The notes below the pieces were generated by a model, which was given only the letters and a program-made list of their open reading frames with translations, made no database searches and had not been told where the DNA came from. A stretch of DNA of 64,000 nucleotides from Escherichia coli. Lineage in GTDB: Bacteria; Pseudomonadota; Gammaproteobacteria; Enterobacterales; Enterobacteriaceae. The stretch is taken from NCBI RefSeq assembly GCF_041248615.1, contig NZ_CP158426.1. One strand, written 5' to 3'. Both the position numbers and the translations under genes were made by a program. This document shows, one piece after another, positions 8,912 to 58,553 of the stretch. How positions within the stretch are numbered: the first letter of the stretch is position 1; each line of letters starts with the position of its first letter.

Positions 8912-8969
8912 CAAATTTTTGCATCTCGCTCATGATGCCAGAGCGGGATGAATTAAAAGGAATGGTGAA

Positions 8970-9848: not shown

Positions 9849-9852
9849 TAAG

Positions 9853-10398: not shown

Positions 10399-11832
10399 TT
10401 GATGAATAACAAACTAGCCAGGCAAGGATTATTATGGAGCACAATTGAAAGGCTAGGAACGCAAGCCATACAATTATTATTAATGTTGTATTTGGGTAGG
10501 GTTCTTGGACCAAGCTCTTTTGGTTATGTTGGTATGCTAACTTTATTTCTATCATTAGCTCAGGTTCTAATTGATAGTGGATTTAGTGCAGCATTAATTA
10601 GAAAATCGGAGCGTACTGAAAAAGATTATTCGACAGTATTTATATTTAATATTTGTCTATCAATACTAATATATATTGTACTTTATTGTTTATCTTCTTA
10701 TATTGCTTTATTCTATCAAATACCTCTGCTGGAATCTTTACTTGATATTTTAGCATTAACAGTTATAGCAAATGGTCTAACTTTAATCCCCAAGATTCAA
10801 CTCACTGTAGACGTGAATTTTAAGATCCAAGCTAAAAGTTCACTTATCGCTATTACCAGTAGTAGTGTAATAGCGATAACGTTAGCTGCTTTGGGTTATG
10901 GAGTATGGACATTGGTTTTCCAATCGTTATCCTATAGTGTCATAAATTGTATTGTACTGAATATTTATAATCCATGGTATCCAAAAGAGAAATTTTGCTA
11001 TGAAACATTCAAAAAGCTATTTTCATTTAGCAGTAACTTACTAATTGCTGGAGTACTTGAAGCTTTTTATTCAAATATATATCAATTAATTATAGGGAAA
11101 TTTTTTACACCACAGCTTGTAGGGCAATTTACACAGGCTAATCAGATCTCTAGCGTACCTGCAATGACACTTACTAATATTATTCAGAGAGTAACTTATC
11201 CACTTTTTTGTAATATTTATAATGGCAAAGGGAAAATAGATGATGCTTATTTAAACACACTTAAAATTGCAGGCGTTGTAGTTTTTCCAATTCTATTAGG
11301 AATAGGTTTAATCTCGAAGCCATTAGTCTCTGTATTATTAGGAAGTGAGTGGAAATTTACATCTGATATTCTGTTTCTACTTTGTATTGCATTTATGATT
11401 TATCCTATACATGCAATAAATATTAATATCCTACAGGTTCATGGGCGAAGTGATCTTTTTTTGCGTTTGGAAATACTAAAAAAGACATTGATGACAATTA
11501 TTCTTGTCATTACGATGCAAATAAATATAAATGCAATGGTGATTGGTTTAGTTTTACACTCATATCTTTCGTGGTTTTTAAATGGATTATTTAGCCAGAA
11601 AGTATCAACGATCACAATAAGGAAGCAGTTAAAAGAGTTACTACCTATATGGTGTCTATGTTTAATTAGTGGGTTAGGTTCTAACTATATTATAAATGAA
11701 ATAAGTATGGAACCTTTATTAAATATAATATTTACTATTTTATTAAATGCCATTATATACATCACACTAATTCGAATTATGTACAAAGAAATATTTATGA
11801 CTATTATTTCTCTTATAAAAAATAAGGGCTGA
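10399..11832 (+). CDS. wzx: O-antigen flippase Wzx (polysaccharide transporter family)
   Basis: 477-aa highly hydrophobic multi-TM ORF in AT-rich O-antigen cluster, directly after rmlC. Confidence 0.75.
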   Translation: MMNNKLARQGLLWSTIERLGTQAIQLLLMLYLGRVLGPSSFGYVGMLTLFLSLAQVLIDSGFSAALIRKSERTEKDYSTVFIFNICLSILIYIVLYCLSSYIALFYQIPLLESLLDILALTVIANGLTLIPKIQLTVDVNFKIQAKSSLIAITSSSVIAITLAALGYGVWTLVFQSLSYSVINCIVLNIYNPWYPKEKFCYETFKKLFSFSSNLLIAGVLEAFYSNIYQLIIGKFFTPQLVGQFTQANQISSVPAMTLTNIIQRVTYPLFCNIYNGKGKIDDAYLNTLKIAGVVVFPILLGIGLISKPLVSVLLGSEWKFTSDILFLLCIAFMIYPIHAININILQVHGRSDLFLRLEILKKTLMTIILVITMQININAMVIGLVLHSYLSWFLNGLFSQKVSTITIRKQLKELLPIWCLCLISGLGSNYIINEISMEPLLNIIFTILLNAIIYITLIRIMYKEIFMTIISLIKNKG

Positions 11833-11834
11833 AA

Positions 11835-32727: not shown

Positions 32728-32979
32728 ATGCGTACAATTAGCTACAGCGAAGCGCGTCAGAATTTGTCGGCAACAATGATGAAAGCCGTTGAAGATCATG
32801 CCCCGATCCTTATTACTCGTCAGAATGGAGAGGCTTGTGTTCTGATGTCACTCGAAGAATACAACTCGCTGGAAGAGACGGCTTATCTACTGCGCTCCCC
32901 CGCTAACGCCCGGAGATTGATGGACTCAATCGATAGCCTGAAATCAGGCAAAGGAACGGAAAAGGACATTATTGAGTGA
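32728..32979 (+). CDS. yefM: Antitoxin YefM (type II TA system)
   Basis: 83-aa [24 protein letters not shown] recognised; overlaps yoeB by 4 nt. Confidence 0.92.
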
Positions 32980-33230
32980 AACTAATCTGGTCTGAGGAGT
33001 CATGGGATGATTATCTGTACTGGCAGGAAACAGATAAGCGAATTGTTAAAAAGATCATTGAACTTATCAAAGATACCCGCAGAACACCATTTGAAGGTAA
33101 GGGGAAGCCAGAACCCCTGAAGCATAATTTGTCAGGCTTCTGGTCCCGACGCATTACAGAGGAGCACCGTCTGGTATACGCGGTTACCGACGATTCACTG
33201 CTCATTGCAGCATGTCGTTATCATTATTGA
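32976..33230 (+). CDS. yoeB: Toxin YoeB (ribosome-dependent mRNA interferase, RelE/YoeB family)
   Basis: 84-aa [24 protein letters not shown] recognised. Confidence 0.92.
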
Positions 33231-42909: not shown

Positions 42910-43080
42910 TTCCTGAACTTCAGAATCATCTTGCTGCTGCTTCGATTCAGCAAGGATAAAGGGTATGATAGTGAAAAGGGATAAAAGCATTGTCATCTGC
43001 GGCAGCTATGAGTAATGTTGGCCCTAACGAATAGCGGTTGCTTAAACGAATCCGACTCTCACATTATCAGGGGTATAAAA

Positions 43081-43410
43081 ATGGAAACTACCAAGCCTTC
43101 ATTCCAGGACGTACTGGAATTTGTTCGTCTGTTCCGTCGTAAGAACAAACTGCAACGTGAAATTCAGGACGTTGAGAAAAAGATCCGTGACAACCAGAAG
43201 CGCGTCCTGCTGCTGGACAACCTGAGCGATTACATCAAGCCGGGGATGAGCGTTGAAGCAATCCAGGGCATCATCGCCAGCATGAAAGGTGACTATGAAG
43301 ATCGCGTTGACGATTACATCATCAAAAATGCCGAGCTCTCCAAAGAACGCCGCGATATCTCCAAAAAGCTGAAAGCTATGGGCGAAATGAAAAACGGCGA
43401 AGCGAAGTAA
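43081..43410 (+). CDS. yeeX: UPF0265 protein YeeX (DUF496)
   Basis: [30 protein letters not shown] recognised; 109 aa from internal Met of the 131-aa ORF. Confidence 0.88.
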
Positions 43411-43424
43411 TTCCTGTTTTATTC

Positions 43425-43451
43425 AATGAGGGTTGCCTGGCAACCCTCATT
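43425..43451 (+). terminator. Perfect palindrome between convergent yeeX and pduV (probable yeeX terminator)
   Basis: aatgagggttgcc t ggcaaccctcatt, 13-bp perfect arms. Confidence 0.55.
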
Positions 43452-43510
43452 GCTCATTGTTTCTTTTCTGTGTATCACCGTCATCATTCCCATCTGATAA
43501 CCTATTGAAA

Positions 43511-43954
43511 TTAGCGACAGCCTTCTTCTGTATGCAGCAAGGCAAAAAGTTCTGCAACTCCATTGTTATTAACCGCACTGGTTACTAACACATTGTGCGC
43601 TCCAGCTTCCCGTAACCAACTTTTCACCAAAGATATTTGTTCCATGCTGGCTAAATCTGCTTTGGTGACTACTCCAATGACCGGGCGATTCATTGACGAG
43701 GTAAAGCCTGGCGAAAAAGGGGACCACGGTGCGTCCGCATTAAGCACCAGGGCGATAATGTCCGCTTCGCAGGCGCTGACCAACAGAGCACTGTAGAGGC
43801 TGCGGTTTTCGAGGTATTCGCCTGGTGTATCAATGGTGGTCGGGGACCAGACGATTGCCTGCGTTTTCTGATAATGAATATTTTCGCCACGCAGACATTG
43901 CGTGAGTGACGTTTTTCCGCACTGGCTGGGGCCGATGAGCATCATACGTTGCAT
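43511..43954 (-). CDS. pduV: Propanediol utilisation GTPase PduV (EutP/PduV family)
   Basis: 147-aa ORF with P-loop [10 protein letters not shown]; last gene of pdu operon here. Confidence 0.85.
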
Positions 43955-43958
43955 AACG

Positions 43959-44309
43959 TCAGGTCCGCGTAATGGGGCAGGCGGTAAAGCGCATCATTTC
44001 ACCCAGCGTACGGGTAACCTGGCTAAGTGCATATTCAATGGCAGAAACATCACCAGTCAGCACTACGGCACCGGTAAAACGATCAAGAAAACCGATCTCT
44101 ACAGCGCCTGATTTTGTGGCGATATCACATGCGATGATAGATGCTTCGCTGGGGGTAATTGTCAGAATGCCAATAGCAGAAACGGTGTCTGGTAAACCCA
44201 ATTTCTTAAACAGATCCTTCCCTGGATTGGCGATGACATGTGCCAGCGTGACCTGCTTACCAGGGACATATTCCTGAATCATCCGTTCAGTTGTGTGCTG
44301 AGTTGTCAT
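43959..44309 (-). CDS. pduU: Microcompartment shell protein PduU (circularly permuted BMC domain)
   Basis: [29 protein letters not shown]; 116 aa from internal Met, removing the overlap with pduT. Confidence 0.85.
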
Positions 44310-44863
44310 TATCCCTCCACCATCTGACGCCACATGGCTTCATGTGGACGGGCAATCACCGACCGATAGACCAACAAACCTTTTTCTCCCGCACGCTCGC
44401 TGGCGACAGAGACCGCGTTATTAACATCTGAAATATCGCCAGCAACCACCATGTAGCATTTACCGCCAATGCCAAAAGCCATATGCACGCGAACAAGAAT
44501 GACATTCGCAGCTTTGACAGCACAATCGGCAGCGTCAATGCAGGCGGCGACACTCCAGGTTTCGACTACGCCGACAGCCCGGTGCTGTTCAACTTGGTTC
44601 AGTCCGCTGGTTGCAGAAAGGAGGCTGGGATGAATATTCGGCAGGACAAGACTGTCGACCAGCATTTCACCAGCAAGGGAAGCACCGCTGTTGATGGCCT
44701 GTTGCACCGCGCCCACATCGCCACCGAGCATCAGCAGAAATTTTCCGGGGCATAGCGTTTTGCTGACCAGTAACTCAACGTTGGCGCTTTTCAGCATGGC
44801 GTCGCCGGTTTCCATCCCTTTCGCGATACTGCTAAGTTCTAAAATACCTACCGCTTTCGACAT
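44309..44863 (-). CDS. pduT: Microcompartment shell protein PduT (tandem BMC, Fe-S)
   Basis: 184-aa ORF with two BMC-like repeats ([29 protein letters not shown]). Confidence 0.88.
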
Positions 44864-44865
44864 CG

Positions 44866-46209
44866 TTAACCTCTCACAAGCGTAATCGCGTTTTCTGTCA
44901 CATCGCTGACCATGCCATCAATACTGGCATGAATGGGGGCACCTAATGTGCCGTGTGGAATTTGACCTACACATTGCCCATGAACGACGCGATCGCCTTT
45001 TTGTACACACGCAATTGCGCTGGCACCGATGTGCTGGCGTAACAATAACGTCACTTTTTCGGTCTGAGGCACCTGTTCAGACAATGGCGCATCCTGATAC
45101 CACGGGGTTAAGCCAAGTCTGGTTACCAGCCGTTTTACGGGAATCAGTCGATAATTTGCCATGGGATCTGCAGGATTTAAGGTACCTTCGTAACGGAGAT
45201 TTTGTGCGCGTAATTCTTGCTTAAGCAGGCGGTTTATGCGCATTGGTGAAATTCCTACCGGACAGGCGACGCTGGCGCAGACGTTGCACTCCGAACAGGT
45301 GAGCGCCGTCAGTAACAGTTGTGGCGTAGCGAGCTGTTGGTAGTTAACCGCACGTACTAATAAATGGGGTGCCAGTTCGTGACCGATTAAATGACGTGGG
45401 CAGAGATCGGTACACAAGCGGCATTGCTCACAAACAGTTTTCGCGACGGCAAGTACGCTGCGGTCATTCTGCATTCGACGTTGGATCAGTGAATGAGAGT
45501 TGGGTAAAACCAGCAAGCCGCCAGTGGTTTTGCTGACTGGTGTGTCGAGCGATGTGATCAAACTTCCCATCATCGGCCCGCCATTGATAAAACCAGGAGC
45601 ATCCACTGTTGCGCCGCCCGCCAGCGCCAGGACTTCACGTAAAGACATGCCGATGGGGACGGTTACCGTTATTGGTTTCGCCACTGCACCATTAACGGTG
45701 AGTGTGCGGCGCGTCACTGGATACTGTTGCTCGACGGCTCTGGCAATATTAAGTACGGTTTGAACATTATTGACCACCACACCGACGTTAACGGGTAATG
45801 CAGCGGGTGGAACACGGCGACCAGTTGCCATCCAGATGGTCAGCACTTCGTCTCCTGCGGGGTAAACGTCGGGCAAAATATGCAGGCGGATATCCGGTGG
45901 TAACAGTGGTGTGAGTGCGTTTATTGCCCGTTGATATTTCTCTTTCAGCGCGATGATTCCGCTACTGGCCCCGGTGGCTTTCATCGCATAGTGAACACCG
46001 CGAAGCAGGCGGCTGGCTTGCTGCGCCATTAACTGTTGATCCACTTTCAACATTGGTTCGCATTCCGCCGCATTCACCAGGAACGTGTCAACACGCGCTT
46101 GTAGCTTAATATGGGTTGGGAAACCTGCGCCGCCAGCACCCACGACACCAGCTGCCTGTACTCGCTCGCGGATGGTCTGGTCGTCGCAGGAGGTTAACTC
46201 GACGTTCAT
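44866..46209 (-). CDS. pduS: Cobalamin reductase PduS (RnfC-like flavoprotein with two 4Fe-4S clusters)
   Basis: 447-aa [15 protein letters not shown] and [13 protein letters not shown] ferredoxin-type motifs. Confidence 0.88.
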
Positions 46210-47318
46210 AACAACTCCTCGAGCAGTTCTGCAATAGCGGTGGCATCAGCCGTACGCGGGTTGGTACGCAACGTTGCATCCGCCAGTGCCGCCTGAACCA
46301 TATCTGGTATGCGTATTGACCATTCTGCTTTTTTTTCTTTCAGCACATTGGTAAGAGTCGGTAGCTTACAGGTTGTTTTAAGCTGTTCAATATGTTGAAT
46401 AAGTATATTCAGGCTGGCGGTGTCATTGGCGTTGTCCGGGCATAAATGGCACGTTTTCGCCAGCCGGGCGTAGCGTTTGGCAGCGCGCGGATCGCCAGCA
46501 TTAAAGCGGATAACCGCCGTGAGCAGGAGCGCATTCGCCAGGCCGTGTGGCAGATGAAACTGTCCGCCGAGTTGATGAGCAATTGCATGGTTTAATCCCA
46601 GTCCAGCCTGGCTAAAGGCCATTCCTGCAAGTGTCGATGCATTATGCATTTTGCCACGGGTGGCGAGACAATCGCCTTTCTTCACTGCAGTGGGCAGGTA
46701 TTGAAAAACAATTTGCACGGCTTTTTCGACCAGTGCATCCGTGAAGTCGCTGGCGCGGGGAGAAACATAAGCTTCAAGCGCATGGGTTAAAACATCCATC
46801 CCGGTATTGGCCGTTATCGCCGGTGGCACGCTGACGATCAGAGATGGATCAAGGATCGCGATATCCGGATAAAGTGCATTATCGAAAAGGGGATATTTAA
46901 TCCCTTTCTCAGGATCGCTGATGACACAAGCACTGGTCACTTCGGAACCGGTACCGCTGGTGGTAGGAATGGCTACGCAGGTTTCAATTTCAATGCCACA
47001 CTGGCGACCGAACCAGACAATCGCTTTTGCGGCGTCCAGGGCAGAACCGCCGCCAAAACCGATAACCACATCCGGGCGTAAAGTCTGCATTTGCGCAATG
47101 CCTTTCACCACGGTCTGGATAGTTGGGTCGGGCGTTATTTCGCTAAAAATACTAAGACGATTACTGTCGGGCAGCGCCTGATGCAACGTGTTAATGAGTG
47201 GTGAGCGTGCCAGAAAGACGTCGCAAATAATCCAGATGTGTTTATGAGAGAAACGGCTAAGTACCTTGAGACTTCCCGGTCCGCTGTATAAACGCGTCTG
47301 CAGTGAAAAAGTATTCAT
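46206..47318 (-). CDS. pduQ: 1-propanol dehydrogenase PduQ (iron-containing alcohol dehydrogenase)
   Basis: 370-aa ORF; GFGGGSALDAAKA Fe-ADH motif; 4-nt overlap with pduS. Confidence 0.88.
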   Translation of the reverse strand: MNTFSLQTRLYSGPGSLKVLSRFSHKHIWIICDVFLARSPLINTLHQALPDSNRLSIFSEITPDPTIQTVVKGIAQMQTLRPDVVIGFGGGSALDAAKAIVWFGRQCGIEIETCVAIPTTSGTGSEVTSACVISDPEKGIKYPLFDNALYPDIAILDPSLIVSVPPAITANTGMDVLTHALEAYVSPRASDFTDALVEKAVQIVFQYLPTAVKKGDCLATRGKMHNASTLAGMAFSQAGLGLNHAIAHQLGGQFHLPHGLANALLLTAVIRFNAGDPRAAKRYARLAKTCHLCPDNANDTASLNILIQHIEQLKTTCKLPTLTNVLKEKKAEWSIRIPDMVQAALADATLRTNPRTADATAIAELLEELL

Positions 47319-47328
47319 TTCCGTTTCT

Positions 47329-48714
47329 CTAGCGAATTGAAAAGCCGCTGGTTAACACGCAGCGTCGTGAGCGGGCAAAAGTCCGTGCTGACGTTGTCCC
47401 TTCTCCGGTCGGTGTTGCAATGGTAAAGGTCGTAAAGCCTTCGCCGCCGACGCCAATACCCGCCCAGGAGGGGCCGTTTTTGACAAAGATTGAGGTTTGC
47501 ATAACGCGTGCGGTAAGGTTGAGCCGTGAGACGTTCTGCGAGTGCATAATTGCCGTGTGGTGCAAGCCGTCTTCCACTTTCAGCGCCAGGGTGAGAGCGC
47601 TATCAAAATCGTTGACCTTCACAATGGGCAGCATTGGCATCAGTTGTTCACAAGTAACCCAACTATCATTGGCGTCGACAACAGCAATCAGTAGGCGCGG
47701 CGCTTTTGCGGGCAAAGGGAGGCCTGCCGCTTCCAGCAAGGCTGATGGGCTTTTCCCAACCAGTTTTTTGTTGGCGCTACCGTCTGGCAGGCAAATTGCA
47801 CGCAATTTCTCCGTTTGCTCATAGTTAAGAAGAAGCGCGCCAAAACTTTGCATCTGCTGAATTAAATAATCTGCCACTGATGCCACGACAATCAGGCTTT
47901 TTTCAGCAATACACGGCAGGTTGTAATCAAATGAAGCGCCGTTGATGATGTCCTCGGCGGCTTTCACAATATCCGCCGTTTCATCGACGATGCACGGAGG
48001 GTTACCCGCTCCGGCACCAATCACTTTCTTGCCACTTTTCATTCCCATGGCGACGATCCCCGGACCGCCGGTAATCGCCAGAACGCTGATTTTAGGGTGC
48101 GCCATCATCTGTTCGGTTGCAGCAAAGGTCGGTTCAGATACGGTAACGATCAGGTTATGAATGCCACTACAACGAAACGCGATGTCTTCGATTGTGGTAA
48201 TCAGTTTTAACGAAACGTATTTGGCTCCCGGGTGTGGACTGAAGTAGACGCTATTACCTGCTGCCAGCATGCTGATGCTGTTGTTAATGATGGTTTCCGT
48301 GGGGTTGGTGCTTGGCGTGACCGAGCCAATAACCCCAAACGGGGAGTATTCAAACAAAACCATGCCACCATCACCGGTTAGTGCAGTGGTGGTTAAATCT
48401 TCAATTCCTGGCGTGTTATCAAGTGCCGCTTTGTTTTTTAGGTACTTATCTTCTTTATTTCCCATCCCCGTTTCTTTGGCGCTTTCTTCTGCCAGTTCGG
48501 TCAGGCGGGGTATTAATTCTTCGCGAATGGCGCTGATAATGGCGCTACGGGTTTTAAGCGGGCACTGTTGAAAGCGTAAAAAGGCCTGGTGTGCTGCGCA
48601 GACCGCTTCATCAACAGTCTGGAAAATAGCGTTTCTTTGCATTCGTTGCGTAGCGGGGGCAAGCTGCTCACGCAGAATATTGCGGATCAGTGTTTCTAAT
48701 TCAGAGTTATTCAT
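47329..48714 (-). CDS. pduP: CoA-acylating propionaldehyde dehydrogenase PduP
   Basis: 461-aa aldehyde dehydrogenase-family ORF in conserved position between pduO and pduQ. Confidence 0.88.
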   Translation of the reverse strand: MNNSELETLIRNILREQLAPATQRMQRNAIFQTVDEAVCAAHQAFLRFQQCPLKTRSAIISAIREELIPRLTELAEESAKETGMGNKEDKYLKNKAALDNTPGIEDLTTTALTGDGGMVLFEYSPFGVIGSVTPSTNPTETIINNSISMLAAGNSVYFSPHPGAKYVSLKLITTIEDIAFRCSGIHNLIVTVSEPTFAATEQMMAHPKISVLAITGGPGIVAMGMKSGKKVIGAGAGNPPCIVDETADIVKAAEDIINGASFDYNLPCIAEKSLIVVASVADYLIQQMQSFGALLLNYEQTEKLRAICLPDGSANKKLVGKSPSALLEAAGLPLPAKAPRLLIAVVDANDSWVTCEQLMPMLPIVKVNDFDSALTLALKVEDGLHHTAIMHSQNVSRLNLTARVMQTSIFVKNGPSWAGIGVGGEGFTTFTIATPTGEGTTSARTFARSRRCVLTSGFSIR

Positions 48715-49718
48715 TGGTTTACTCCCACGTTAATTGCCGCCATTGCGCTTTGGGCAATATCCATGTCTTGTTCAACGCTACCACCGCTGATGCCAAGCCC
48801 CCCGAGCAATATTCCGTCACGCCAGAGGGGGAAGCCGCCACCAAAGGTGACGACTTTGCCTTGCATATGGCTTTCGAGCCCGTAAAGCGGCGCGCCGGGT
48901 TGCACGGTATCAGCAAGTTTGTGGGTTGCCGTTTTCATCGCCACGGCAGTCCAGGCTTTTTTCGGTGCCAGTTCACTGCTGACCAACAGGGCATCAGGCA
49001 TCCGCCAGGTAACACTTTCTGTTCCGTTGGCATCAACAATGCTGATGACAACGGGAATATGCAGTTCATCCGCGCGCATTGCCGCACTACGAATGAGCTG
49101 GTGAAGATCCTGAAAAGTGAGCGGCATTGTGCGTTCCTTCAATGCTGGTGTGTGGTTGGCTTTGTGATAACGTTTTGTGATTTCCTGAATTATCAGGTTT
49201 TGATGAGCGACGTTGTCTTCCACGCGGGCGAGGGCATACAGGCAATCGGAAAGTCGGTTGATATAGTGCAGCAAAACATTCCGGACGGTGATTTCCGTTG
49301 TCAGTTCAACCAGACGTCTTTCAGCACGTCGAGCCACCGTGCGGGCGAAATGCATACGGCTTGCAGCTTCACATCGCCCAGGCAGAATGAAGCTGTGAAC
49401 TGGGGGGACGGCGTTCATTGCGCTATCGATCGCGTTTTCCAGCGCGGCAATTTCTTCCGTACCGATGTAACGCAGCTGCGCTGACGGCTGTTCGCTTTCA
49501 CTGGCAAGTTCGGCGCTAAACCAAAATATCTGTTGTTGAATGGCTTCCAGTAAGATGCGATGGCTTTCGATGGCGGTGGCGCAATAACACAGACTGAGTG
49601 TCGCGTTCAGTTCATCCAGCGTGCCATAGGTTTCGACACGTAGATGAGTTTTGCTGACGCGCTGTCCGGTAAATAAAGACGTACTTCCTGAATCACCTGT
49701 TCGGGTATAAATTGCCAT
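48711..49718 (-). CDS. pduO: ATP:cob(I)alamin adenosyltransferase PduO
   Basis: 335-aa ORF; PduO-type N-terminus MAIYTRTGDSGSTSLFTGQRVSK plus C-terminal DUF336-like domain. Confidence 0.88.
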   Translation of the reverse strand: MAIYTRTGDSGSTSLFTGQRVSKTHLRVETYGTLDELNATLSLCYCATAIESHRILLEAIQQQIFWFSAELASESEQPSAQLRYIGTEEIAALENAIDSAMNAVPPVHSFILPGRCEAASRMHFARTVARRAERRLVELTTEITVRNVLLHYINRLSDCLYALARVEDNVAHQNLIIQEITKRYHKANHTPALKERTMPLTFQDLHQLIRSAAMRADELHIPVVISIVDANGTESVTWRMPDALLVSSELAPKKAWTAVAMKTATHKLADTVQPGAPLYGLESHMQGKVVTFGGGFPLWRDGILLGGLGISGGSVEQDMDIAQSAMAAINVGVNQ

Positions 49719-49729
49719 CTTTCAGCTCC

Positions 49730-50005
49730 TTAGCGCGAAAGCGTATCGACAATGCCGACCACTGCCAGGTCGATGGCCTCGTTAGGGCCGGAAAACACAT
49801 GTCTGGCGCTGGAACCACTGCTGAGGAGTACCAACTCACCAACGCCTGCGCCGACTGAATCAACGGCAACTTCGTCGCCGGTTAATGGCGTGAGAGGCAG
49901 TTCGCCGTCAGCACTGACCCGGCGAACCAGCAGCAGTTTTTTCCCGATCAGAGATGGTGATTTTTGCGTGGATACTACCGCGCCAGTGACTCGAGCCAGA
50001 TGCAT
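49730..50005 (-). CDS. pduN: Microcompartment vertex protein PduN (EutN/CcmL pentamer family)
   Basis: 91-aa [30 protein letters not shown]. Confidence 0.88.
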
Positions 50006-50008
50006 AGG

Positions 50009-50500
50009 TTACTCCTGCCTAATTAACTGAATATTTCGGGTAATTGCCGCTTCACGAGCCAGTGCGGTCACACAACATTTCCGCTGTAACACCAGTATTC
50101 CCGAGCTTAACTGTGCGATATCGGCATAACTTAAAAGTCGATCACGATGAAGGTAGATCGGTTGCCCTTGTTCGTCGCACCAGCTTAGCGGTAGACGGGC
50201 GAGAGTCTTCAATTCAATGGCGTTCAGGAAATGACGCTGCAACGACAATTGAATGTGCATTCCCCAGGCTAACGCTTCGTGTATCTGGATTGCTGCTCGA
50301 TCTGACGTTTCGTTCTCCGCAAGTTGTCGCAGCAGCGGCAGATCGACATATCGGATTTGTAATGACGCATACTGATGAACGCTCTCTTGAACGCTGGCGT
50401 CTCGCAGTTGAAAAACAGTCAGCACGAGTGCTTTTCTCGCACGTTGTTTAAGGCGAAAAACCACCTCGTCAACAATACGTTGCATCAGCATGTTATTCAT
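50009..50500 (-). CDS. pduM: Microcompartment structural protein PduM
   Basis: 163-aa ORF in conserved position between pduL and pduN. Confidence 0.8.
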   Translation of the reverse strand: MNNMLMQRIVDEVVFRLKQRARKALVLTVFQLRDASVQESVHQYASLQIRYVDLPLLRQLAENETSDRAAIQIHEALAWGMHIQLSLQRHFLNAIELKTLARLPLSWCDEQGQPIYLHRDRLLSYADIAQLSSGILVLQRKCCVTALAREAAITRNIQLIRQE

Positions 50501-51129
50501 GGCACTGACACCAGTGTGGCAAAAACGTCAGGGCTATCAGCGCCTGCGGCGTTGGCCTCATCGGTATCAATATGCATTTCAAGACGCATATCCGGAGAGA
50601 CGCGAACAGCGACGTTTTCGAATATCAGTCGTCGCTCACCACCTTCAATGGCAACCGCCACTTTATCGCCATGCGTAACGCCATAAATCAGGGCATCCAG
50701 CGGAGACATATGAATATGCCGTTGCGCGACAATGACGCCAGATGTGATCTCCAGTTCCGCAAATGGGCTTATCAAACGAATCCCCGGAGTGCCGCTGAGA
50801 TCGCCTGACATGCGTAGCGGGGCGGTGATCCCTAACGTTCTGGCGTCCGTCCGGGAAATTTCCACCTGGCTTGCATTGCGTAGCGGCCCCAACAAGCGAA
50901 CGTTGTGCAATTTGCCTTTTGGTCCCTCCAGCGTAACAACCTGTTCAGCAGCGAATTGGCCAGGTTGCATTAACGGCTTTTTCTCGCTAATCGGTTGTTC
51001 AGGAAAAAGACGCAAATAATCCGCTGTTGAAAGATGAATATGGCGACTGGAAACGCCCAGTGGGATAGGGCGCTCGCGCATCTCATCCAGAATCTGGCTC
51101 ACTGTTTCCTGCAGGGTTTGTTTATCCAC
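50497..51129 (-). CDS. pduL: Phosphate propanoyltransferase PduL
   Basis: 210-aa ORF, conserved position; PduL/EutD-type acyltransferase. Confidence 0.85.
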   Translation of the reverse strand: MDKQTLQETVSQILDEMRERPIPLGVSSRHIHLSTADYLRLFPEQPISEKKPLMQPGQFAAEQVVTLEGPKGKLHNVRLLGPLRNASQVEISRTDARTLGITAPLRMSGDLSGTPGIRLISPFAELEITSGVIVAQRHIHMSPLDALIYGVTHGDKVAVAIEGGERRLIFENVAVRVSPDMRLEMHIDTDEANAAGADSPDVFATLVSVP

Positions 51130-51131
51130 TG

Positions 51132-51554
51132 CTACTCCCCTCGCTTATTGGCGTACAGGCAAAGTGAGCGGGGCTCACCTTTTTGCCGCTGACATGCCGG
51201 GTCAAGACACAAATTACAACTGATAATCTCTGAGGTGACGGTTGTTGCTGGTGTTTTGCTTGTTTCAACCGTCACGGTCAATGCTTCAATTGTGTGGGGC
51301 AGAATGCCGTCTCCCGGGCGGGCAATCACTTTGTGTGCGACAAGGCCATTTCGCTGTCCGGCGAAACTGGCTCCCGTCGCGATCGCCGCATTAACCGAGG
51401 CGACGTCACCGGTGATTTTGATGAGCGTCCAGCCTGAGCCATTGGTCTTCTCAAGGCCAACCAGCGTGATGGACGCGGCTTTTGCCATAGCGTCTGCGCA
51501 ACTGATGGCGAGAGCCAGACCACTGACTTCAAGTAATCCCAGTGATTGCTTCAC
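51132..51554 (-). CDS. pduK: Microcompartment shell protein PduK (BMC domain with Cys-rich C-terminal tail)
   Basis: 140-aa ORF, N-terminal BMC domain (MKQSLGLLEVSGLALAISCADAMAKAASI), C-terminal CNLCLDPAC. Confidence 0.85.
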   Translation of the reverse strand: MKQSLGLLEVSGLALAISCADAMAKAASITLVGLEKTNGSGWTLIKITGDVASVNAAIATGASFAGQRNGLVAHKVIARPGDGILPHTIEALTVTVETSKTPATTVTSEIISCNLCLDPACQRQKGEPRSLCLYANKRGE

Positions 51555-51577
51555 GCTGTGCTCCTTAGCGAATGGGG

Positions 51578-51853
51578 TTATGCTGATTTAGGTAAAATAG
51601 CCTCAACATCACTGTGTGGGCGCGGGATGACATGGCAGGATTTCACTTCGCCAACGGCGCTTGCGGCGGCGCTTCCTGCATCAACGGCGGCTTTTACTGC
51701 GCCAACATCGCCACGGACCATCACCGTAATCAGACCCGAACCAATCTTTTCATAGCCAACCAGCTGCACGTTGGCGGATTTAACCATGGCATCTGCAGCT
51801 TCAATTGCGCCAACTAACCCTTTTGTTTCAACCAGTCCTAGTGCGTTGTTCAT
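51578..51853 (-). CDS. pduJ: Microcompartment shell protein PduJ (BMC hexamer)
   Basis: 91-aa [32 protein letters not shown]. Confidence 0.9.
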
Positions 51854-51872
51854 ACTGCATTTCTCCTGTGGA

Positions 51873-52223
51873 TTATGAGTGGAGTTCCCGGAAGGGAATC
51901 CCTTTTACCAGGCGGGCAGCGTTAGAGCCAATGCTGCGCCGGGCATGGTTATCTTGTTGATACATCAGCGTAAACAGTGGCGCTGATGCCGGTAAGTTTT
52001 TGTAATGCACAATCAGTTTTTCCTGATCGCAGGCAATGCCAACCAACAGGGGAGATTGACTAGCAGCCAGCCAGGCGCTATCGATAACTTCACCTGACGG
52101 AATGTGTTGAATGCGAAAGGGAATACCTTCCTCTTCAATGCCAAGAAGCACCTCATCCCATATAGTGATGCAGTTACCGATCTCCATGACGACGATGGCT
52201 GGTGCACGCTCTTTACTTTCCAT
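51873..52223 (-). CDS. pduH: Diol dehydratase reactivase small subunit PduH
   Basis: 116-aa ORF, overlaps pduG 3' end; conserved position. Confidence 0.85.
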
Positions 52224-54045
52224 GAATCGACTCCTTGTGCCAGGCGATGAGTAGCCCAGTAGCTACCGCGTTGCGCGGACCTTCGCTACCACGGATATTC
52301 CCCCGTCCGGCGACCAATCGATAATGCGCCAATGCATCGGTGACTAACTGCGGTACTTCGAAATCCAGCGAAGAACCGCCCACCAGAACGACGAACGGAA
52401 TATCGCGAATATTTCCGGCAGGGCTTACCTGACGTAGCGCGCGCAGGGCATTGGTTACGAAGACACGCTCTTTCGCACTGCGGCGGACAGCGCGTACTTT
52501 TTCCAGCGTCAAATCACCGGGAATGGGCACCAGTTCGTCGGGTTTCACTACACAGACGCGGGCAAATACATGGGGGGATAGGGGAGTAGGGAAGAACTGA
52601 ACGCTGCCATCTTCATGGCGTAAGTGGAACAGGCTTTCTACTTTTGCCAACGGGTACTTTTTGATTTCTTCTGCCAGATAACGATCATTTAAGCCCAGCT
52701 CACGAGCGATAATCATCGTTACCATGTCGCCCGCTCCCGCAAGGTGAGTGGCAACAATTTCTCCTTTCTGATTGATGATGGAGGCATCGGTAGAGCCTGC
52801 ACCTAAGTCCAGAATTGCCAGTGGACGTGTGGTTCCAGGGGTAGTCAAGGCCCCCTGAATGGCGGCTTCTGCTTCTGCGCCTCCGACCTGAACATCAACA
52901 TGCAGTTTTTGCTTAATTTCACTGGCGATCATTGCCATTTGCAGACGGTCGGATTTCACCATAGAGGCAATACCCACAGCCTGTTCCAGTGAAAATTCAC
53001 CTGCCAGACCGCCGGTTACGCTGACGGGGACAGAGGTATCTATCGCCAGCAAATCCTGAATAAAAATTTCGTTGCTGGGTTTGTTGGTCAGTTCCGCCAT
53101 GGTCTGGCGAACATGTTCCAGCATTCCGCCGATGTTGGTGCCTGGTTTTCCCGTCACGTTTTCCAGTTTTGGGCACTCACCGACCGCTTTCATAATGGCA
53201 TCGGCACCAGCAGCTACATCAACGCGCGTTGTGCGCCCGGCAGAAAGCAGTTCGATATTTCCGGCGGGTATCGAACGGGCTTTAACGTCGCCAGAAGGCG
53301 TTTTCACTACCACTGCTGAACGGTTGCCGATTAGCGCCCGCGCGACAGGAACAATATTTTTAGTCTCTTCAGCATTGAGGGCGAAAACGGTGGCAATCCC
53401 ATACGGGTTAGACAGGGTTTCGATAACTTTCCCGGGAACGGCAACTTCAATTGCAGCCAGCATGCCGAGCGGAATACGATCGATGTAGAGGACTTCATCA
53501 ACAATAGGTACAGCAATTTCCAGGCGGTTACTGACCAGCACGCCATCGTCGCGTTGCAGAATAACGCCAGTCAGCTGATATCCGGCACGTACGGAGGCGT
53601 TTATCATCGTCGCGATATCGGCAAAATCAAATGCCGATGACACCACCAGGATGTAAGGTGTGTCCGCCGGGCGTGTTAATAACTCTTGCGGAGTGATGGT
53701 GAGCCCTACGCCCAGCCCCACTCCGCCCGGAGTTTTCGGGTTGTGACCGATCATGGTTGATTCAGTGATGATGGTTTCAGTGATGGTTTCCATCGCCACA
53801 TCACCAATGACCGGAGTTGCTTCGTTGATACGAATAAGCGAAATATCGCTAACATTGATGCCGACTTTTTTCGTTGCCTGTGCGAGCGCCTCCTGAATAC
53901 CATGGACGTTACGCAACGTACCTTTAATTCCGGTGGTTTCCGCCAGGGCGCTACTCACGAACGACAACTCTCCAGTTGCACTGAGCGTTGCCAGCGCAAC
54001 CTCTGTTGATGAGTTGCCGATATCAATGCCTGCTATATATCGCAT
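52213..54045 (-). CDS. pduG: Diol dehydratase reactivase large subunit PduG
   Basis: 610-aa ORF, MRYIAGIDIGNSSTEVALA actin-like ATPase N-terminus. Confidence 0.9.
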   Translation of the reverse strand: MRYIAGIDIGNSSTEVALATLSATGELSFVSSALAETTGIKGTLRNVHGIQEALAQATKKVGINVSDISLIRINEATPVIGDVAMETITETIITESTMIGHNPKTPGGVGLGVGLTITPQELLTRPADTPYILVVSSAFDFADIATMINASVRAGYQLTGVILQRDDGVLVSNRLEIAVPIVDEVLYIDRIPLGMLAAIEVAVPGKVIETLSNPYGIATVFALNAEETKNIVPVARALIGNRSAVVVKTPSGDVKARSIPAGNIELLSAGRTTRVDVAAGADAIMKAVGECPKLENVTGKPGTNIGGMLEHVRQTMAELTNKPSNEIFIQDLLAIDTSVPVSVTGGLAGEFSLEQAVGIASMVKSDRLQMAMIASEIKQKLHVDVQVGGAEAEAAIQGALTTPGTTRPLAILDLGAGSTDASIINQKGEIVATHLAGAGDMVTMIIARELGLNDRYLAEEIKKYPLAKVESLFHLRHEDGSVQFFPTPLSPHVFARVCVVKPDELVPIPGDLTLEKVRAVRRSAKERVFVTNALRALRQVSPAGNIRDIPFVVLVGGSSLDFEVPQLVTDALAHYRLVAGRGNIRGSEGPRNAVATGLLIAWHKESIHGK

Positions 54046-54054
54046 AGTTCGTCC

Positions 54055-54573
54055 TTAATCGTCGCCTTTCAGTTTTTTGCGCTCGACATAAAGTTCCGCA
54101 GCTTCACGGACAAATGCAGCACAAATTTTGGCCTGATAACGCCGTTCAAGATCGTCAGCAATGGCAATAAGTTCTTGCTTAGTCGAACGATAAGGGCGTA
54201 ACGCATTGTAGATTTCGAGGATGCGATCATCCGGTACTGAGGTAAGCTCAGCGGCGCGTTCAAAATTCATCGCCAGGCGATCGCGACCAGCATCTCTGGC
54301 AATCGCGGCCTGAATACGCAATGTTTCAGGGGTTATACGCATATCCTGGGCGGTGACGTTATCGCTGAGTACATTTTCCAGAGTGAAATCGTCGAGCGTT
54401 TTATTGGTCGCCGTTTTAACCCATTCCGGATGTTTATTTGCCAGCGGATAATCCGTCACTTTGGCGCTCTGTATTGACGCGTTGGGTGCCGCAGAAACAG
54501 GAGCTGCATCCTGTAAACTGTTCATGCGATTCAACACGTCCCTGACCATCGACTCAATTGCATCGGTATTCAT
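54055..54573 (-). CDS. pduE: Propanediol dehydratase small (gamma) subunit PduE
   Basis: 172-aa ORF, conserved position. Confidence 0.88.
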   Translation of the reverse strand: MNTDAIESMVRDVLNRMNSLQDAAPVSAAPNASIQSAKVTDYPLANKHPEWVKTATNKTLDDFTLENVLSDNVTAQDMRITPETLRIQAAIARDAGRDRLAMNFERAAELTSVPDDRILEIYNALRPYRSTKQELIAIADDLERRYQAKICAAFVREAAELYVERKKLKGDD

Positions 54574-54587
54574 GAAGGTTTCCTTTG

Positions 54588-55256
54588 TTAAAACGTCACG
54601 CGCAGTTCTTGCGGTTTTTTGCCAGTGACCACGTACTTCGTCTCTTTAATATGCAAAATGGCAGATTTGGCCTGGTATTTCGGCCGCGCCATTTGATCGT
54701 TGAGGGTCGGCACCGGTTGTGGAGACTCACGCTTTGCATAACGCGCGGCGTTTTTGCCAATCTGACGATAAGTTTCCAGCGTCAACAAAGGCGCTTGTGG
54801 GAATAGTTCCAGGTTAGACAAGGGAGGAAGACCTTGCTGGTGGATAACCGTTGTGCCTTTCGACTGAATACCGATAGCAATACCTGAACCACTAAGACGA
54901 TCGCCTTCGACTGCTACGAATGCGACATCGGACGATTTAAAGCAGCGAATCACACGGGCTTTAATGCCTTCTTCTTCGATACCAGCAATCACTTCGCGCA
55001 AGATGTTTTTATGCGGAATACCGATGATATTGACGGTTTGCGCCAGGCCGAACGCCGGGCCTACAGCAATAATGACTTCATCTTGCTGAGTGCCTTGTTG
55101 GGCTTCGCCAATTTCGGCCAGAAAAGTTCCGGTATCTGGCGCGGAAGAGACAGTTGCACAGGCAGGTGCGCGAAATGAAACGGGCTTGTCGCTGGTTTGC
55201 ATTTCTGCCAGCACGTCTTCGATAATCTGACGCAGTAATTTTTCGTTAATTTCCAT
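54588..55256 (-). CDS. pduD: Propanediol dehydratase medium (beta) subunit PduD
   Basis: 222-aa [22 protein letters not shown]. Confidence 0.9.
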
Positions 55257-55265
55257 TTCTCACCC

Positions 55266-56930
55266 TTAGTCAATTTCGTTGGGATCAAGTGCACCGGGAA
55301 TATTTTTGATCTCTTCCCAGCGTTCCCCTTGCAGGCGGTAACCTGTAGCCGGTCCGGCGTAATCATTGACGTCATTGACCGCAGAGAGCACTTGTCCGTC
55401 ATCGACGATGATGGCTGAGGTATGGAGATAATCGCCGGTCAGTTTTGCTTTTTGCATGTTGAGCATGTCTTGGGCGACATCGGTAAAACCGCCTTGCGCC
55501 AGGGCTTTCACCACTTCCAGGCTGTTCCGGTTTTTATTGATAATCTCCTGGGCGAACTTGATGTCTTCCACAATATTGCGCTCAGGCATATCTTTTGAAC
55601 CGTGGGCATAGGTTGCCGCTTCGACTTCTTCATCGGTAATAGGCGGTAGTCCCATACCGGCAAAGACAGCCTGTAAAGCGCGAGCGGCTTTATTGCGGAT
55701 AGCGATAACATCTTCTTCGCGTACTGGTCGCAGGCCGCCATCAACCTTCAGGTCACGCTGAATGACGTTGTAATCATCGAAGTCTTCAGCATCTTCGTTT
55801 GAACCAGCAAACATGTTGTCGTAGTTCGGCACAGCGGAAAAACCGGAAGAGATAAAGTCGGTACCTGGCAGAAACTGCATCAGGAAACGTGCGGTACGGC
55901 GCATATCCGAGTGGGTAAAGGTCTGGTCATTACTGGAGGCGCATTCCAGATCCAGCGATGAGCAAATTAAGTTTTCCGCTAATACTGCGCGGATGCCTGA
56001 TGGCACAGCCGATGGAACACCGATGCAGCTTACCGAACCATTCTGTAGACCCTGAACTCCTGCGGCTTTGGTGATGTAAATGCAACGAGCCTCGAGATAA
56101 AGCATTGATTTGCCTTCCGCGTAACCCATCTGTACTTCAGAGCCGGAGCCGGAAGTAAAGCGCATTTTTAAGCCGCGAGACGCATAGGATGACGCGAGAA
56201 ATCCTTTTGACCACGGGGTGTCATCGCCATCGGTGAAAACAGGTTCTGTACCATAGACAGAAATTGTTTCGGCGTAACAGGTGTGGCCTAACATACCGAG
56301 TTTCAGTTCGGTGGCTTCTTCCAGTGAACACTGGGTCAAGACGCCCGGACGTCCCACCTGTGAGCCGACCAGCAGGGCGATGGCGTTGAACGGGGCATAG
56401 CGAGCAACGGCAACGGTGGTTTCCTGTTCATCAAACCCGCGCCATGCGCCTTCAGCTGCGTCGGCGGCAATTTGTACCGGGTTATCTTTGACGTTGGTGA
56501 CGTGAGCCTGTTGTGATGGTGTTCGACGGGCGCGCATTTTCTGCATCGCCATCATCATCTCTACCACGTTCATCTGCGAAACAACTTCGACGATTTTTGC
56601 AGGCGTCATTGCTGTGGTAAGGGGAACGATATCGCTACGTTTGACATTTGGATCGCACAACATATTGGCAAGTTTTACCGAATCCATCGCGATGACTTCT
56701 TCTGCACGCGCGAGATTGATGCCGTAGCGGGCGATAAAGTGGTCGATCAGGTCAAACTGGCTGGCGGGTTTTCCATCCAGTTCGGTAACGACGCCGTTAA
56801 CAATTTTGATTGACGGTTTAGGATCGTTCGGGCTTTCCATCGCAATGAAGCCTTCTTCAATCCACTCTTTAACGAAACCGTCCTGGTTGACCGGGCGTTT
56901 TGCCAGTGCTTCAAATCTTTTCGATCTCAT
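55266..56930 (-). CDS. pduC: B12-dependent propanediol dehydratase large (alpha) subunit PduC
   Basis: 554-aa ORF MRSKRFEALAKRPVNQDGFVKEWIEEGFIAMESPNDPKPSIK recognised. Confidence 0.92.
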   Translation of the reverse strand: MRSKRFEALAKRPVNQDGFVKEWIEEGFIAMESPNDPKPSIKIVNGVVTELDGKPASQFDLIDHFIARYGINLARAEEVIAMDSVKLANMLCDPNVKRSDIVPLTTAMTPAKIVEVVSQMNVVEMMMAMQKMRARRTPSQQAHVTNVKDNPVQIAADAAEGAWRGFDEQETTVAVARYAPFNAIALLVGSQVGRPGVLTQCSLEEATELKLGMLGHTCYAETISVYGTEPVFTDGDDTPWSKGFLASSYASRGLKMRFTSGSGSEVQMGYAEGKSMLYLEARCIYITKAAGVQGLQNGSVSCIGVPSAVPSGIRAVLAENLICSSLDLECASSNDQTFTHSDMRRTARFLMQFLPGTDFISSGFSAVPNYDNMFAGSNEDAEDFDDYNVIQRDLKVDGGLRPVREEDVIAIRNKAARALQAVFAGMGLPPITDEEVEAATYAHGSKDMPERNIVEDIKFAQEIINKNRNSLEVVKALAQGGFTDVAQDMLNMQKAKLTGDYLHTSAIIVDDGQVLSAVNDVNDYAGPATGYRLQGERWEEIKNIPGALDPNEID

Positions 56931-56948
56931 AAATCTGCCTCAGAGAAT

Positions 56949-57761
56949 TCAGATGTAGGAAGGGCGATCGTTTTTCGGTGTATCGCCGAGAGTCGAAAGC
57001 ACGGTTTTACCGATTTCGCGTGCGGAGATGACCGCCTGGCGGACTGCGCCGGAGTCACCCGAGATAATCAGAATGACTTCATTGCTGTAGCTGGTGCCTT
57101 GAGCGGGGGAGCTGTATGCCACAACATCCACATTGGCGGACTTCAGCGCGGTGTCTGCCATCAGAACACCCACAGCAGCCGGAGCGCCGACAATAACGCC
57201 GCAAGCCCGTCCCAATGGTGCACCAAACGCTTTTTCCAGTGCATAGCTGGCGCGGGCGGTATATTGCAGCTCAAGATGTCCGGCTTCGTTGGCATAGACA
57301 TCGCCAAAGGTTCGATCGAGTTCTTTCAGGGCAACTTCAATACCGCGTTTCACGTCGGAAACATCGTTGCCACCTAAGAGGATCAATGAGCCGTGTCCGG
57401 CACCGCCTTTAGTATCGCGAGGAAGTTCAATGCTAATAACTTCAGTGTTGGTGGCTTTTACCGCTTCATCAGCGGCCATAATGTGTGGACCTGCGCCAAT
57501 ACGCGCACCCAGAATGCCAATGGAACGATAGCGTTTTTCAAGTTTCATTGCGTCCAACAGGGCGCTATCAACGTTCGCAATGACCAGACCTACAGTGTCG
57601 CCAATAGCGGTGCCAACAAATTCTGTTAATGTGCAGCTTTTTTCTGCCATAGCCGTCTCTCGTATTTGATGAGTGGTTTTCGGGAGAACCTCATGCTCTG
57701 GCGTCGCTACGCGAGCGATGACCTGCGCCATGATCTGTTCGACCAGTTCATTGCTGCTCAT
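56949..57761 (-). CDS. pduB: Microcompartment shell protein PduB (tandem BMC trimer); internal in-frame start for PduB' at 57650
   Basis: 270-aa ORF; internal Met at codon 38 ([13 protein letters not shown]) matches the known PduB' start. Confidence 0.9.
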
Positions 57762-58042
57762 GGGTTAATTCCCTTTGGTAAGATTTTTTCGACATCGGTA
57801 TGTGGGCGGGGAATAACATGTACGGCTTTTACTTCGCCGACGTTACGCGCAGCTGCGGCACCTGCGTCTGTTGCCGCTTTTACCGCCCCGACATCACCAC
57901 GAACGATGACGGTCACCAGCCCGGAACCTATTTTTTCGTAGCCGACCAGCAAAACATTTGCCGACTTCACCATGGCGTCTGCGGCCTCTATGGCGGCAGT
58001 TAAGCCTTTGGTTTCTACCATTCCTAACGCTTCTTGTTGCAT
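57758..58042 (-). CDS. pduA: Major microcompartment shell protein PduA (BMC hexamer)
   Basis: 94-aa [33 protein letters not shown]. Confidence 0.92.
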
Positions 58043-58553
58043 AAAGACCTCGCCTGGATTTTTTTGACGATATGACTATAAAAAAAAGCGAGGAAAAAGA
58101 ATGGCTGACTTAATCGGCTAATGAGAAAAATTAATAGAGAACAAATATTATAAAATTGCTTTTATGAACTATATGTTGTTAATTTATTAGTTGTTTTGTG
58201 GATATTTCAATGTGAATTAATTGCGTTGGCTAGTGAGTTTAATCGCGAGTAATATTTCGTTGAGTTTAGTTCGAGGAAGGAACTGTGATATTTGTTTCAA
58301 TTTTATTATATCATGATGGCAATTTTTTATTGTGAAAGTTTGACAGTAATTATTACTTTCAACACTGATTAACGCTGTGTTGCATGATTCGGCAATGACA
58401 ATAATTTGTTATGTTAGCACGATTTTTACACGAGTCTGTCATGCATGTTGGCAATATTTTCTGCAGAGCAATTTTTTATAGTTGCGCTCGGTATACACAA
58501 CAATCAGCGCATAGTTGGCTGATAAAGAAAAACTCCGTAAAGAAGGTGTCACT
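58043..58553. promoter_or_regulatory. AT-rich divergent control region between pduA (minus) and pduF (plus); expected pdu and pduF-pocR promoters
   Basis: About 510 bp non-coding, strongly AT-rich with multiple A/T tracts; in the Salmonella pdu/cob regulon this region holds PocR-, Crp- and ArcA-responsive promoters. Confidence 0.55.

Follow-up and report, generated by a model that had tools for sequence, protein, structure and literature searches.

We examined a 64,000-nucleotide stretch of Escherichia coli DNA (NCBI RefSeq assembly GCF_041248615.1, contig NZ_CP158426.1; hereafter the window), part of which is occupied by a propanediol utilization (pdu) operon. From position 58042, the start of pduA, to position 43511, the stop of pduV, the minus strand holds 19 successive open reading frames (ORFs) in the order pduA-B-C-D-E-G-H-J-K-L-M-N-O-P-Q-S-T-U-V, and adjacent ORFs either overlap by 1–11 bases or are separated by gaps of 2–23 bases. 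A previous sequence-only reading of this DNA had described 19 co-directional, packed or overlapping minus-strand genes, and its coordinates fall exactly on these two ends. The genes are listed below with the family models, structures and annotations (Prokaryotic Genome Annotation Pipeline, PGAP) that identify them; shell proteins are assigned to bacterial microcompartment (BMC) classes.

57758..58042, minus strand: pduA, hexameric BMC-H shell protein, 94 residues (PGAP; 178 bits to the Salmonella PduA structure 3NGK)
56949..57761, minus strand: pduB, tandem-BMC trimeric shell protein, 270 residues (NF011944, 474 bits, profile positions 2–269 of 269)
55266..56930, minus strand: pduC, B12-dependent diol dehydratase large subunit, 554 residues (model matched over its full length, 1074 bits)
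54588..55256, minus strand: pduD, diol dehydratase medium subunit with an N-terminal encapsulation peptide, 222 residues (391 bits)
54055..54573, minus strand: pduE, diol dehydratase small subunit, 172 residues (PduE equivalog NF011971, 358 bits)
52213..54045, minus strand: pduG, diol dehydratase reactivase alpha subunit, 610 residues (TIGR04491, 959 bits)
51873..52223, minus strand: pduH, reactivase beta subunit, 116 residues (Dehydratase_MU, PGAP, positional orthologue in Salmonella)
51578..51853, minus strand: pduJ, BMC-H shell protein, 91 residues (PGAP and NCBIfam; 98–100% amino acid identity to orthologues)
51132..51554, minus strand: pduK, BMC-H shell protein with a C-terminal Cys-rich tail, 140 residues (BMC domain at residues 4–80)
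50497..51129, minus strand: pduL, phosphate propanoyltransferase, 210 residues (NF011652, 256 bits)
50009..50500, minus strand: pduM, microcompartment structural protein, 163 residues (NF011957, 247 bits)
49730..50005, minus strand: pduN, pentameric vertex protein, 91 residues (EutN/CcmL family matches; PduN in PGAP)
48711..49718, minus strand: pduO, two-domain ATP:cob(I)alamin adenosyltransferase, 335 residues (Cob_adeno_trans at 3–166, HbpS-like at 200–326; TIGR00636)
47329..48714, minus strand: pduP, CoA-acylating propionaldehyde dehydrogenase, 461 residues (NF011927, 717 bits, full length)
46206..47318, minus strand: pduQ, iron-type 1-propanol dehydrogenase, 370 residues (Fe-ADH families, PGAP; 81% amino acid identity to Salmonella)
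44866..46209, minus strand: pduS, flavin/Fe-S cobalamin reductase, 447 residues (Complex1_51K, SLBB, Fer4 and RnfC_N domains)
44309..44863, minus strand: pduT, tandem-BMC shell protein with an Fe-S site at Cys38, 184 residues (TIGR02526; CPGKF motif conserved)
43959..44309, minus strand: pduU, circularly permuted BMC shell protein, 116 residues (EutS/PduU subfamily, 135 bits; PGAP)
43511..43954, minus strand: pduV, EutP/PduV small GTPase-like protein, 147 residues, the last gene of the operon (TIGR02528, 187 bits)

When positions 43000–61500 were searched by megablast against the 5426 complete genomes of E. coli, a stretch of NZ_LT599825.1, from E. coli isolate NRZ14408, proved 100% identical. 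The RefSeq PGAP annotation of that record contains the same 19 coding sequences with the same ends, except for the start of pduU, which PGAP places at 44309 and for which the ORF listing used an upstream GTG at 44333. The sequence-only reading had been staked on the integrity of the genes and on an E. coli source. None of the 19 pdu ORFs, whose products are 91–610 residues long, contains an internal stop or a frameshift, and both the identity to NZ_LT599825.1 and the synteny point to E. coli. The products of 18 of the 19 genes match the expected NCBIfam models, either end to end or over the expected domain; PduH has no NCBIfam match and instead matches the Pfam family Dehydratase_MU (E = 1e-31). 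The identities previously proposed for the shell proteins, diol dehydratase, reactivase, PduL, PduP, PduQ, PduO and PduS are all borne out by NCBIfam, Pfam and structure matches. Several antisense or overlapping ORFs lie inside the operon, the longest of 264 codons on the plus strand at 48690–49484, opposite pduO and pduP; they have no Pfam match and are probably spurious.

In tblastn searches, all pdu proteins of the window aligned over approximately their full length with positional orthologues in Salmonella diarizonae, Citrobacter werkmanii, Klebsiella indica and Escherichia albertii, with gene order kept; as a comparison of sequences, such a 19-gene match far exceeds what would be expected by chance. 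Conservation extends to individual motifs. PduA is 98% identical to its Salmonella and Citrobacter orthologues, and PduB retains Met38, the internal start that gives PduB', in alignment with the Salmonella sequence. Residues 1–554 of PduC align to residues 1–554 of the Klebsiella oxytoca diol dehydratase structure 1DIO (1219 bits). The N-terminal peptides of PduD, PduP, PduL and PduE align with those of Salmonella, a conservation at the sequence level from which targeting is predicted; a 16-residue N-terminal stretch of PduD is identical to Salmonella, and the targeting peptide of PduP conserves the pattern MNxSELExLIRNIL. PduK, with 70% identity over its full length, has the CNLCLDPAC...C motif in common with Salmonella, PduS (80% identical to Salmonella PduS) carries a Cys (Fe-S) motif of 11 residues, and the P-loop of PduV reads GPSQCGKTS. 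Amino acid identity to Salmonella runs from 97.5% for PduC, the highest, through about 70% for PduV and PduK and 69% for PduH, down to 56% for PduM. The last of these is the fastest-evolving protein of the operon, with 52–56% identity to Salmonella, Citrobacter and Klebsiella, as against about 80% for PduL and about 92% for PduN, and it is also the most diverged in the comparison with E. albertii (84%).

The gene content is that of a pdu-type microcompartment. The signature enzyme PduCDE is accompanied by a shell set of PduA, PduJ, PduK and PduU (BMC-H), PduB and PduT (BMC-T) and PduN (BMC-P), by the core enzymes PduP, PduL and PduQ, and by PduGH, PduO and PduS for cofactor maintenance. The order pduABCDEGHJKLMNOPQSTUV and the divergent pduF-pocR pair next to it also agree, as judged by tblastn in other genera and by the Salmonella gene calls. 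The Salmonella operon reportedly reads pduABCDEGHJKLMNOPQSTUVWX, in the description by Bobik et al. of 1999. The one-for-one correspondence with Salmonella that had been proposed therefore holds through pduV. The claim that the operon is complete stands for pduA to pduV but needs a qualification: in Salmonella two further genes of the operon, pduW (propionate kinase) and pduX (L-threonine kinase), follow pduV, and neither the window nor E. albertii has them. As these two genes are accessory to the microcompartment itself, their absence marks an Escherichia variant and does not exclude the locus from the pdu type.

Comparison loci were collected by a PduL scan of species-representative genomes, which returned E. 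albertii, another Escherichia, several Citrobacter, Salmonella enterica subsp. diarizonae, Klebsiella indica and others. In tblastn with the window proteins, the order pocR, pduF and then pduA to pduV is the same in Salmonella, Citrobacter and Klebsiella. In Salmonella and Citrobacter, pduV is followed by approximately 2.2 kb and then by tmaR and yeeA, oriented as in the window; in Salmonella these 2.2 kb consist of pduW (404 residues) and pduX (300 residues). Neither tmaR nor yeeA was found in the fetched stretch of the Klebsiella locus. The common flank shows that Salmonella, Citrobacter and Escherichia carry the operon at one and the same site on the chromosome. The Salmonella enterica operon thus resembles that of the window in the order of pocR, pduF and pduA to pduV, in its position by tmaR and yeeA, and in its targeting peptides and metal-site motifs, but it has pduW, pduX and an adjacent cbiA–cbiP series, whereas the window lacks pduWX and retains of the cbi genes only a riboswitch and a cbiG fragment. 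In E. albertii NBRC 107761, pduB to pduV are collinear with the window (the contig ends within pduA, short of pduF, pocR and the riboswitch), pduV abuts tmaR, and pduW and pduX are missing. Since pduV directly abuts tmaR in the window, in E. albertii and in the adherent-invasive E. coli (AIEC) strain LF82, the loss of pduWX is shared within Escherichia. LF82 (NC_011993.1, 2083448–2101340) has the same architecture throughout, namely cobU, cbiG', riboswitch, pocR, pduF, pduA to pduV and tmaR, with equal gene lengths and 97.7% nucleotide identity over 22 kb with 4 gap openings. Its 19 Pdu proteins are 94.8–100% identical to those of the window, 18 of them in full-length alignments and PduQ over 363 of 370 residues. 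It thus differs from the window by about 2.3% allelic variation (95.7–100% identity for the pdu genes), a level similar to that seen in the core genes on its flanks (98.4–99.4%); the window strain also differs in carrying an O7-type O-antigen cluster. In one Escherichia genome, strain SCPM-O-B-8794 (locus L005, 10001–10850), a deletion runs from the 3' end of pduL to about codon 240 of pduO, so that pduM and pduN are missing while the remainder of the operon is complete.

The functional unit extends past the pduV–pduA coordinates, as it includes the divergent pduF-pocR pair and a relic cob leader before cobUST. The features on the two sides of the operon are the following.

43081..43410: tmaR (= yeeX), convergent with pduV and 100 bp from it
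43424..43452: palindrome with a perfect 13-bp stem between the convergent tmaR and pduV, retained in K-12 too
58043..58553: pduA/pduF divergent control region, 511 bp, AT-rich, partly alignable to Salmonella and Citrobacter
58554..59363, plus strand: pduF, propanediol diffusion facilitator of the MIP family (PGAP, Pfam)
59566..60480, plus strand: pocR, AraC-type activator with a PocR sensory domain (PGAP, Pfam; 90% amino acid identity to Salmonella)
60572..60746, plus strand: cobalamin riboswitch aptamer, full length (RF00174, 109 bits, model positions 1–189)
60834..60968: 44-codon ORF that opens at the old cbiA start codon and whose stop overlaps (ATGA) the start of cbiG'
60965..61402, plus strand: cbiG', an N-terminal fragment of cbiG, 145 codons (CbiG model positions 1–125 of 351, E = 6e-19; tblastx to the start of Salmonella cbiG)
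61536..63912, plus strand: cobU-cobS-cobT, nucleotide-loop assembly in corrinoid salvage (PGAP; cobU at 61536–62081)

These positions of tmaR and cobU agree with the E. coli-type yeeX/cobU context recognized in the sequence-only reading. The interval between pocR and cobUST can be understood from the Salmonella locus (fetched by its PocR), in which pocR is followed by cbiA, B, C, D, E, T, F, G, H, J and K. Window positions 60568–60842 are 82% identical in nucleotide sequence to the Salmonella cob leader, and this homology ends at the third cbiA codon (60842). It resumes approximately 27 bp before the cbiG start and fades inside cbiG' (about 53% amino acid identity over about 51 aligned codons), and the cbiG' region ends 134 bp before cobUST. 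Two breaks in homology imply two deletions, one of cbiA–cbiF and one running from the 3' part of cbiG through cbiP. Past the third cbiA codon, the 44-codon ORF and the 134 bp before cobU show no DNA homology to Salmonella cbiA–cbiK, and neither has an NCBIfam or Pfam match. In addition, about 250 bp of the spacer between pocR and the riboswitch (window 60481–60571), presumably the cob promoter region, are kept in Salmonella, Citrobacter and Klebsiella but missing from both Escherichia sequences compared. The cbi losses and the missing pduX fit an organism without de novo B12 synthesis that retains a B12-dependent pathway and CobUST salvage.

That the locus is strain-variable, as had been suspected, is evident from the complete E. 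coli genomes: 637 of the 5426 (11.7%) carry the operon, a carrier being a genome that matches at least 80% of it, and the pocR/riboswitch segment is present in 643–644. Nearly all non-carriers keep 174–299 bp of the 3' end of pduV beside tmaR. In both K-12 and Nissle, window homology ends at 43693, leaving a 183-bp pduV remnant followed by a CP4-44-like island. K-12 has the flanks dacD-sbmC-yeeA-tmaR and cobUST in common with the window, and in place of window positions 43694–61230 (17.5 kb) it carries the 12.7-kb CP4-44 cryptic prophage with IS5 and IS2; homology resumes at 61231, so that the last 172 bp of cbiG' are kept. The prophage and insertion sequence material predicted between yeeX and cobU in K-12 is thus present there, and the companion statement that K-12 has no pdu genes is right for the operon but overlooks the last 183 bp of pduV, which survive as the 3' part of yoeF. 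A scar of a different kind is found in MFDS1019527, where a clean 17.25-kb deletion joins window position 43809 to 61062 at about 5 bp of microhomology without an insert, fusing a 299-bp pduV remnant to cbiG'.

Remnants of pduV and cbiG' inside pdu-negative genomes show deletion and not an empty site. We consider it very probable that this is the pdu operon in its Escherichia form, encoding a complete propanediol microcompartment, and that it is an old chromosomal resident, lost from about 88% of E. coli by at least two independent deletions, and not a recent island. The sequence comparisons are best read as an ancestral Escherichia locus that would have been lost repeatedly.

Among the alternatives, the one that survives best, itself very unlikely, is a genomic island recently acquired by horizontal transfer from Salmonella, Citrobacter or Klebsiella. 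It would account for the patchy occurrence among E. coli lineages, which amounts to the above 11.7% of complete genomes and, in a published survey, to 27 of 327 strains with a retention index of 0.26 on the E. coli tree (PMC7577506); it agrees with literature that describes multiple acquisitions and neighbouring predicted islands (PMC9997745, PMC5517970); and the locus has the O-antigen/his recombination hot spot on one side and a tRNA-Asn island hot spot on the other. An import from those genera is hard to reconcile with operon-wide nucleotide identity, which is approximately 76–77% to Salmonella, Citrobacter and Klebsiella (published as 77.5% for the LT2 pdu operon; PMC9997745), compared with 91% to E. 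albertii and 97.6–100% among E. coli. The divergence from E. albertii is in line with that of flanking genes (86–97% identity for the pdu genes, 87–95% for dacD-sbmC, yeeA and tmaR), and the tmaR-yeeA-adjacent position is the same in Salmonella, Citrobacter and E. albertii. Nor were the marks of a mobile island found, whether mobility genes, a tRNA or attachment-site (att) boundary, or atypical composition. No integrase or transposase gene and no tRNA is present, a search for direct or inverted repeats at the flanks gave no more than short chance repeats and the pduA/pduJ paralogy, and the GC content of the operon, 51.9% (51.7% at third codon positions), resembles that of the flanks (49–55%). 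Two of the checks proposed with the sequence-only reading, alignment to Salmonella pdu and to pdu-positive E. coli and a comparison of base composition with the flanks, gave a collinear locus with a composition like that of the flanks. Together with the internal pduV and cbiG' scars, these data largely refute a cross-genus import.

Slightly less probable still is that the operon, despite its intact look, is decaying and no longer functional, a relic as the cbi remnants next to it are. Old neighbours of the cob-pdu regulon (cbiA–P, pduW, pduX) have indeed been deleted, the spacer of about 250 bp between pocR and the riboswitch is missing, and one Escherichia genome has the internal pduL–pduO deletion. 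On the other hand, all 19 ORFs as well as pduF and pocR are full length with intact functional motifs, whereas in cbiG', a true pseudogene, drift has brought amino acid identity down to about 53% over the roughly 51 codons that can still be aligned. Moreover, the proteins are 95–100% identical to those of LF82, in which transcription covers the whole operon and bile salts induce it (PMC6379400), and the pdu-positive E. coli CUMT8 no longer grows on 1,2-propanediol once pduC is deleted, although it still grows on fucose or rhamnose (PMC9220930). A third possibility, that an ethanolamine (eut), glycyl-radical (grp) or glycerol dehydratase (dha) microcompartment was misread as pdu because several shell and accessory proteins score on Eut and carboxysome models and PduCDE is homologous to glycerol dehydratase, is ruled out by the signature enzymes, as PduB, PduE, PduG and PduM exceed the curated cut-offs of pdu-specific equivalog models, PduC matches diol dehydratase better (1219 bits) than glycerol dehydratase (891 bits), no EutBC or glycyl-radical enzyme is present, and PocR and PduF flank the cluster.

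Several observations weigh against an ancestral operon that is repeatedly lost and still works. The identity of about 77% to Salmonella means somewhat more divergence than is typical of core genes between the two species. The operon is patchy across the E. coli tree, with the low retention index cited above, and published work explains this patchiness by the operon having been acquired repeatedly (PMC9997745, PMC5517970). That repeated loss is the sole cause is not proven, and homologous recombination of the whole segment probably contributes; exchange between lineages of alleles with and without the operon would account for the poor fit to the strain tree (PMC7577506). The loss of pduW could lower the ATP yield, and for expression and microcompartment formation in this strain we infer what is likely by analogy with its relatives.

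The working of the operon can be modelled on the Salmonella paradigm, reportedly established by Bobik et al. in 1999 and in later studies. PduF would admit 1,2-propanediol, and PocR would sense it and switch on the divergent promoters. The predicted shell would be built from PduA, PduB/B', PduJ, PduK, PduT and PduU as hexamers and trimers and from PduN as a pentamer, with PduM as a likely assembly factor. In the lumen, the adenosyl-B12-dependent PduCDE would convert 1,2-propanediol to propionaldehyde, which the shell would hold in. PduP would oxidize this aldehyde to propionyl-CoA and PduQ would reduce part of it to 1-propanol, recycling NAD+, after which PduL would form propionyl-phosphate. 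PduGH, PduO and PduS would reactivate the dehydratase and re-adenosylate its cofactor, and PduV may be an accessory GTPase-like protein. As pduW is missing, a housekeeping acetate/propionate kinase would have to carry out the final ATP-yielding step, and in the absence of pduX and the cbi genes, B12 would need to be imported, or else cobinamide to be completed by CobUST. By this analogy the strain probably has a working metabolosome dependent on imported corrinoid.

The orphan riboswitch may bear on this dependence. It retains its leader hairpin as well as the cbiA start codon. Of 643 genomes, 332 have an aptamer at least 99% identical to that of the window; for the 218 bp that follow it, 124 of 644 genomes reach this level, and for the final 181 bp of pocR 5 of 643 do. 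The comparison works in coarse identity bands and is sensitive to single-nucleotide polymorphisms private to the window. The aptamer thus seems more conserved than its neighbours among pdu-positive E. coli, a weak hint of constraint. It is conceivable, though in our view rather unlikely, that the riboswitch still gates cbiG'-cobUST, so that a B12-responsive corrinoid salvage would have been lost along with pdu in K-12-type strains, the pdu-positive state being ancestral and part of a long-lived presence/absence polymorphism.

The locus itself is already known, being annotated in RefSeq and described in several papers, which cover its patchy distribution, its conserved location, the alternative gene sets at the site, the E. 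albertii and Shigella copies, and associations with disease and host (PMC7577506, PMC5517970, PMC9997745, PMC2941450); the published links of E. coli pdu include Crohn's-disease AIEC (LF82) and canine sequence type ST372. The two classes of scar, the loss of pduWX in common with E. albertii, and the orphan riboswitch with its cbiA start and cbiG fragment are modest additions that we did not find spelled out in a non-exhaustive literature search. The operon marks the strain as able, in principle, to use fucose- or rhamnose-derived 1,2-propanediol in the gut, given B12 or cobinamide. Remnants of pduV and cbiG', together with an orphan riboswitch and the lack of pduWX that E. albertii shares, point to loss by most E. 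coli and not to gain by a few, which tempers the wording of an acquired island in parts of the literature.

The palindrome at 43424–43452 is a likely candidate for a bidirectional terminator. The pduA/pduF control region contains a weak sigma-70-like site on the minus strand (58210–58181); the promoter scan found fewer sigma-70-like sites than it did in shuffled sequence (6 vs 19). A promoter-like site also precedes cobU at 61407–61434. The spacer between pduF and pocR contains, on the minus strand at 59422–59505, a match to the Rfam enterobacterial small RNA STnc230 (71 bits; gathering score 50), antisense to both genes, which overlaps a terminator-like hairpin at 59431–59458. Beyond tmaR lie yeeA, sbmC, dacD and sbcB, the end of a K-12-like series his-yeeZ-...-sbcB-dacD-sbmC-yeeA-tmaR. 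The rest of the window holds colanic-acid genes, the O7-type O-antigen cluster, gnd, ugd, wzzB and the his operon. A yefM-yoeB toxin-antitoxin pair is encoded at 32728–33230. The O7-family O-antigen cluster extends from galF to gnd (6927–21008) with a GC content of 29–33%, and comprises rfbBDAC, wzx, vioAB, wzy, glycosyltransferase genes and manC/manB.

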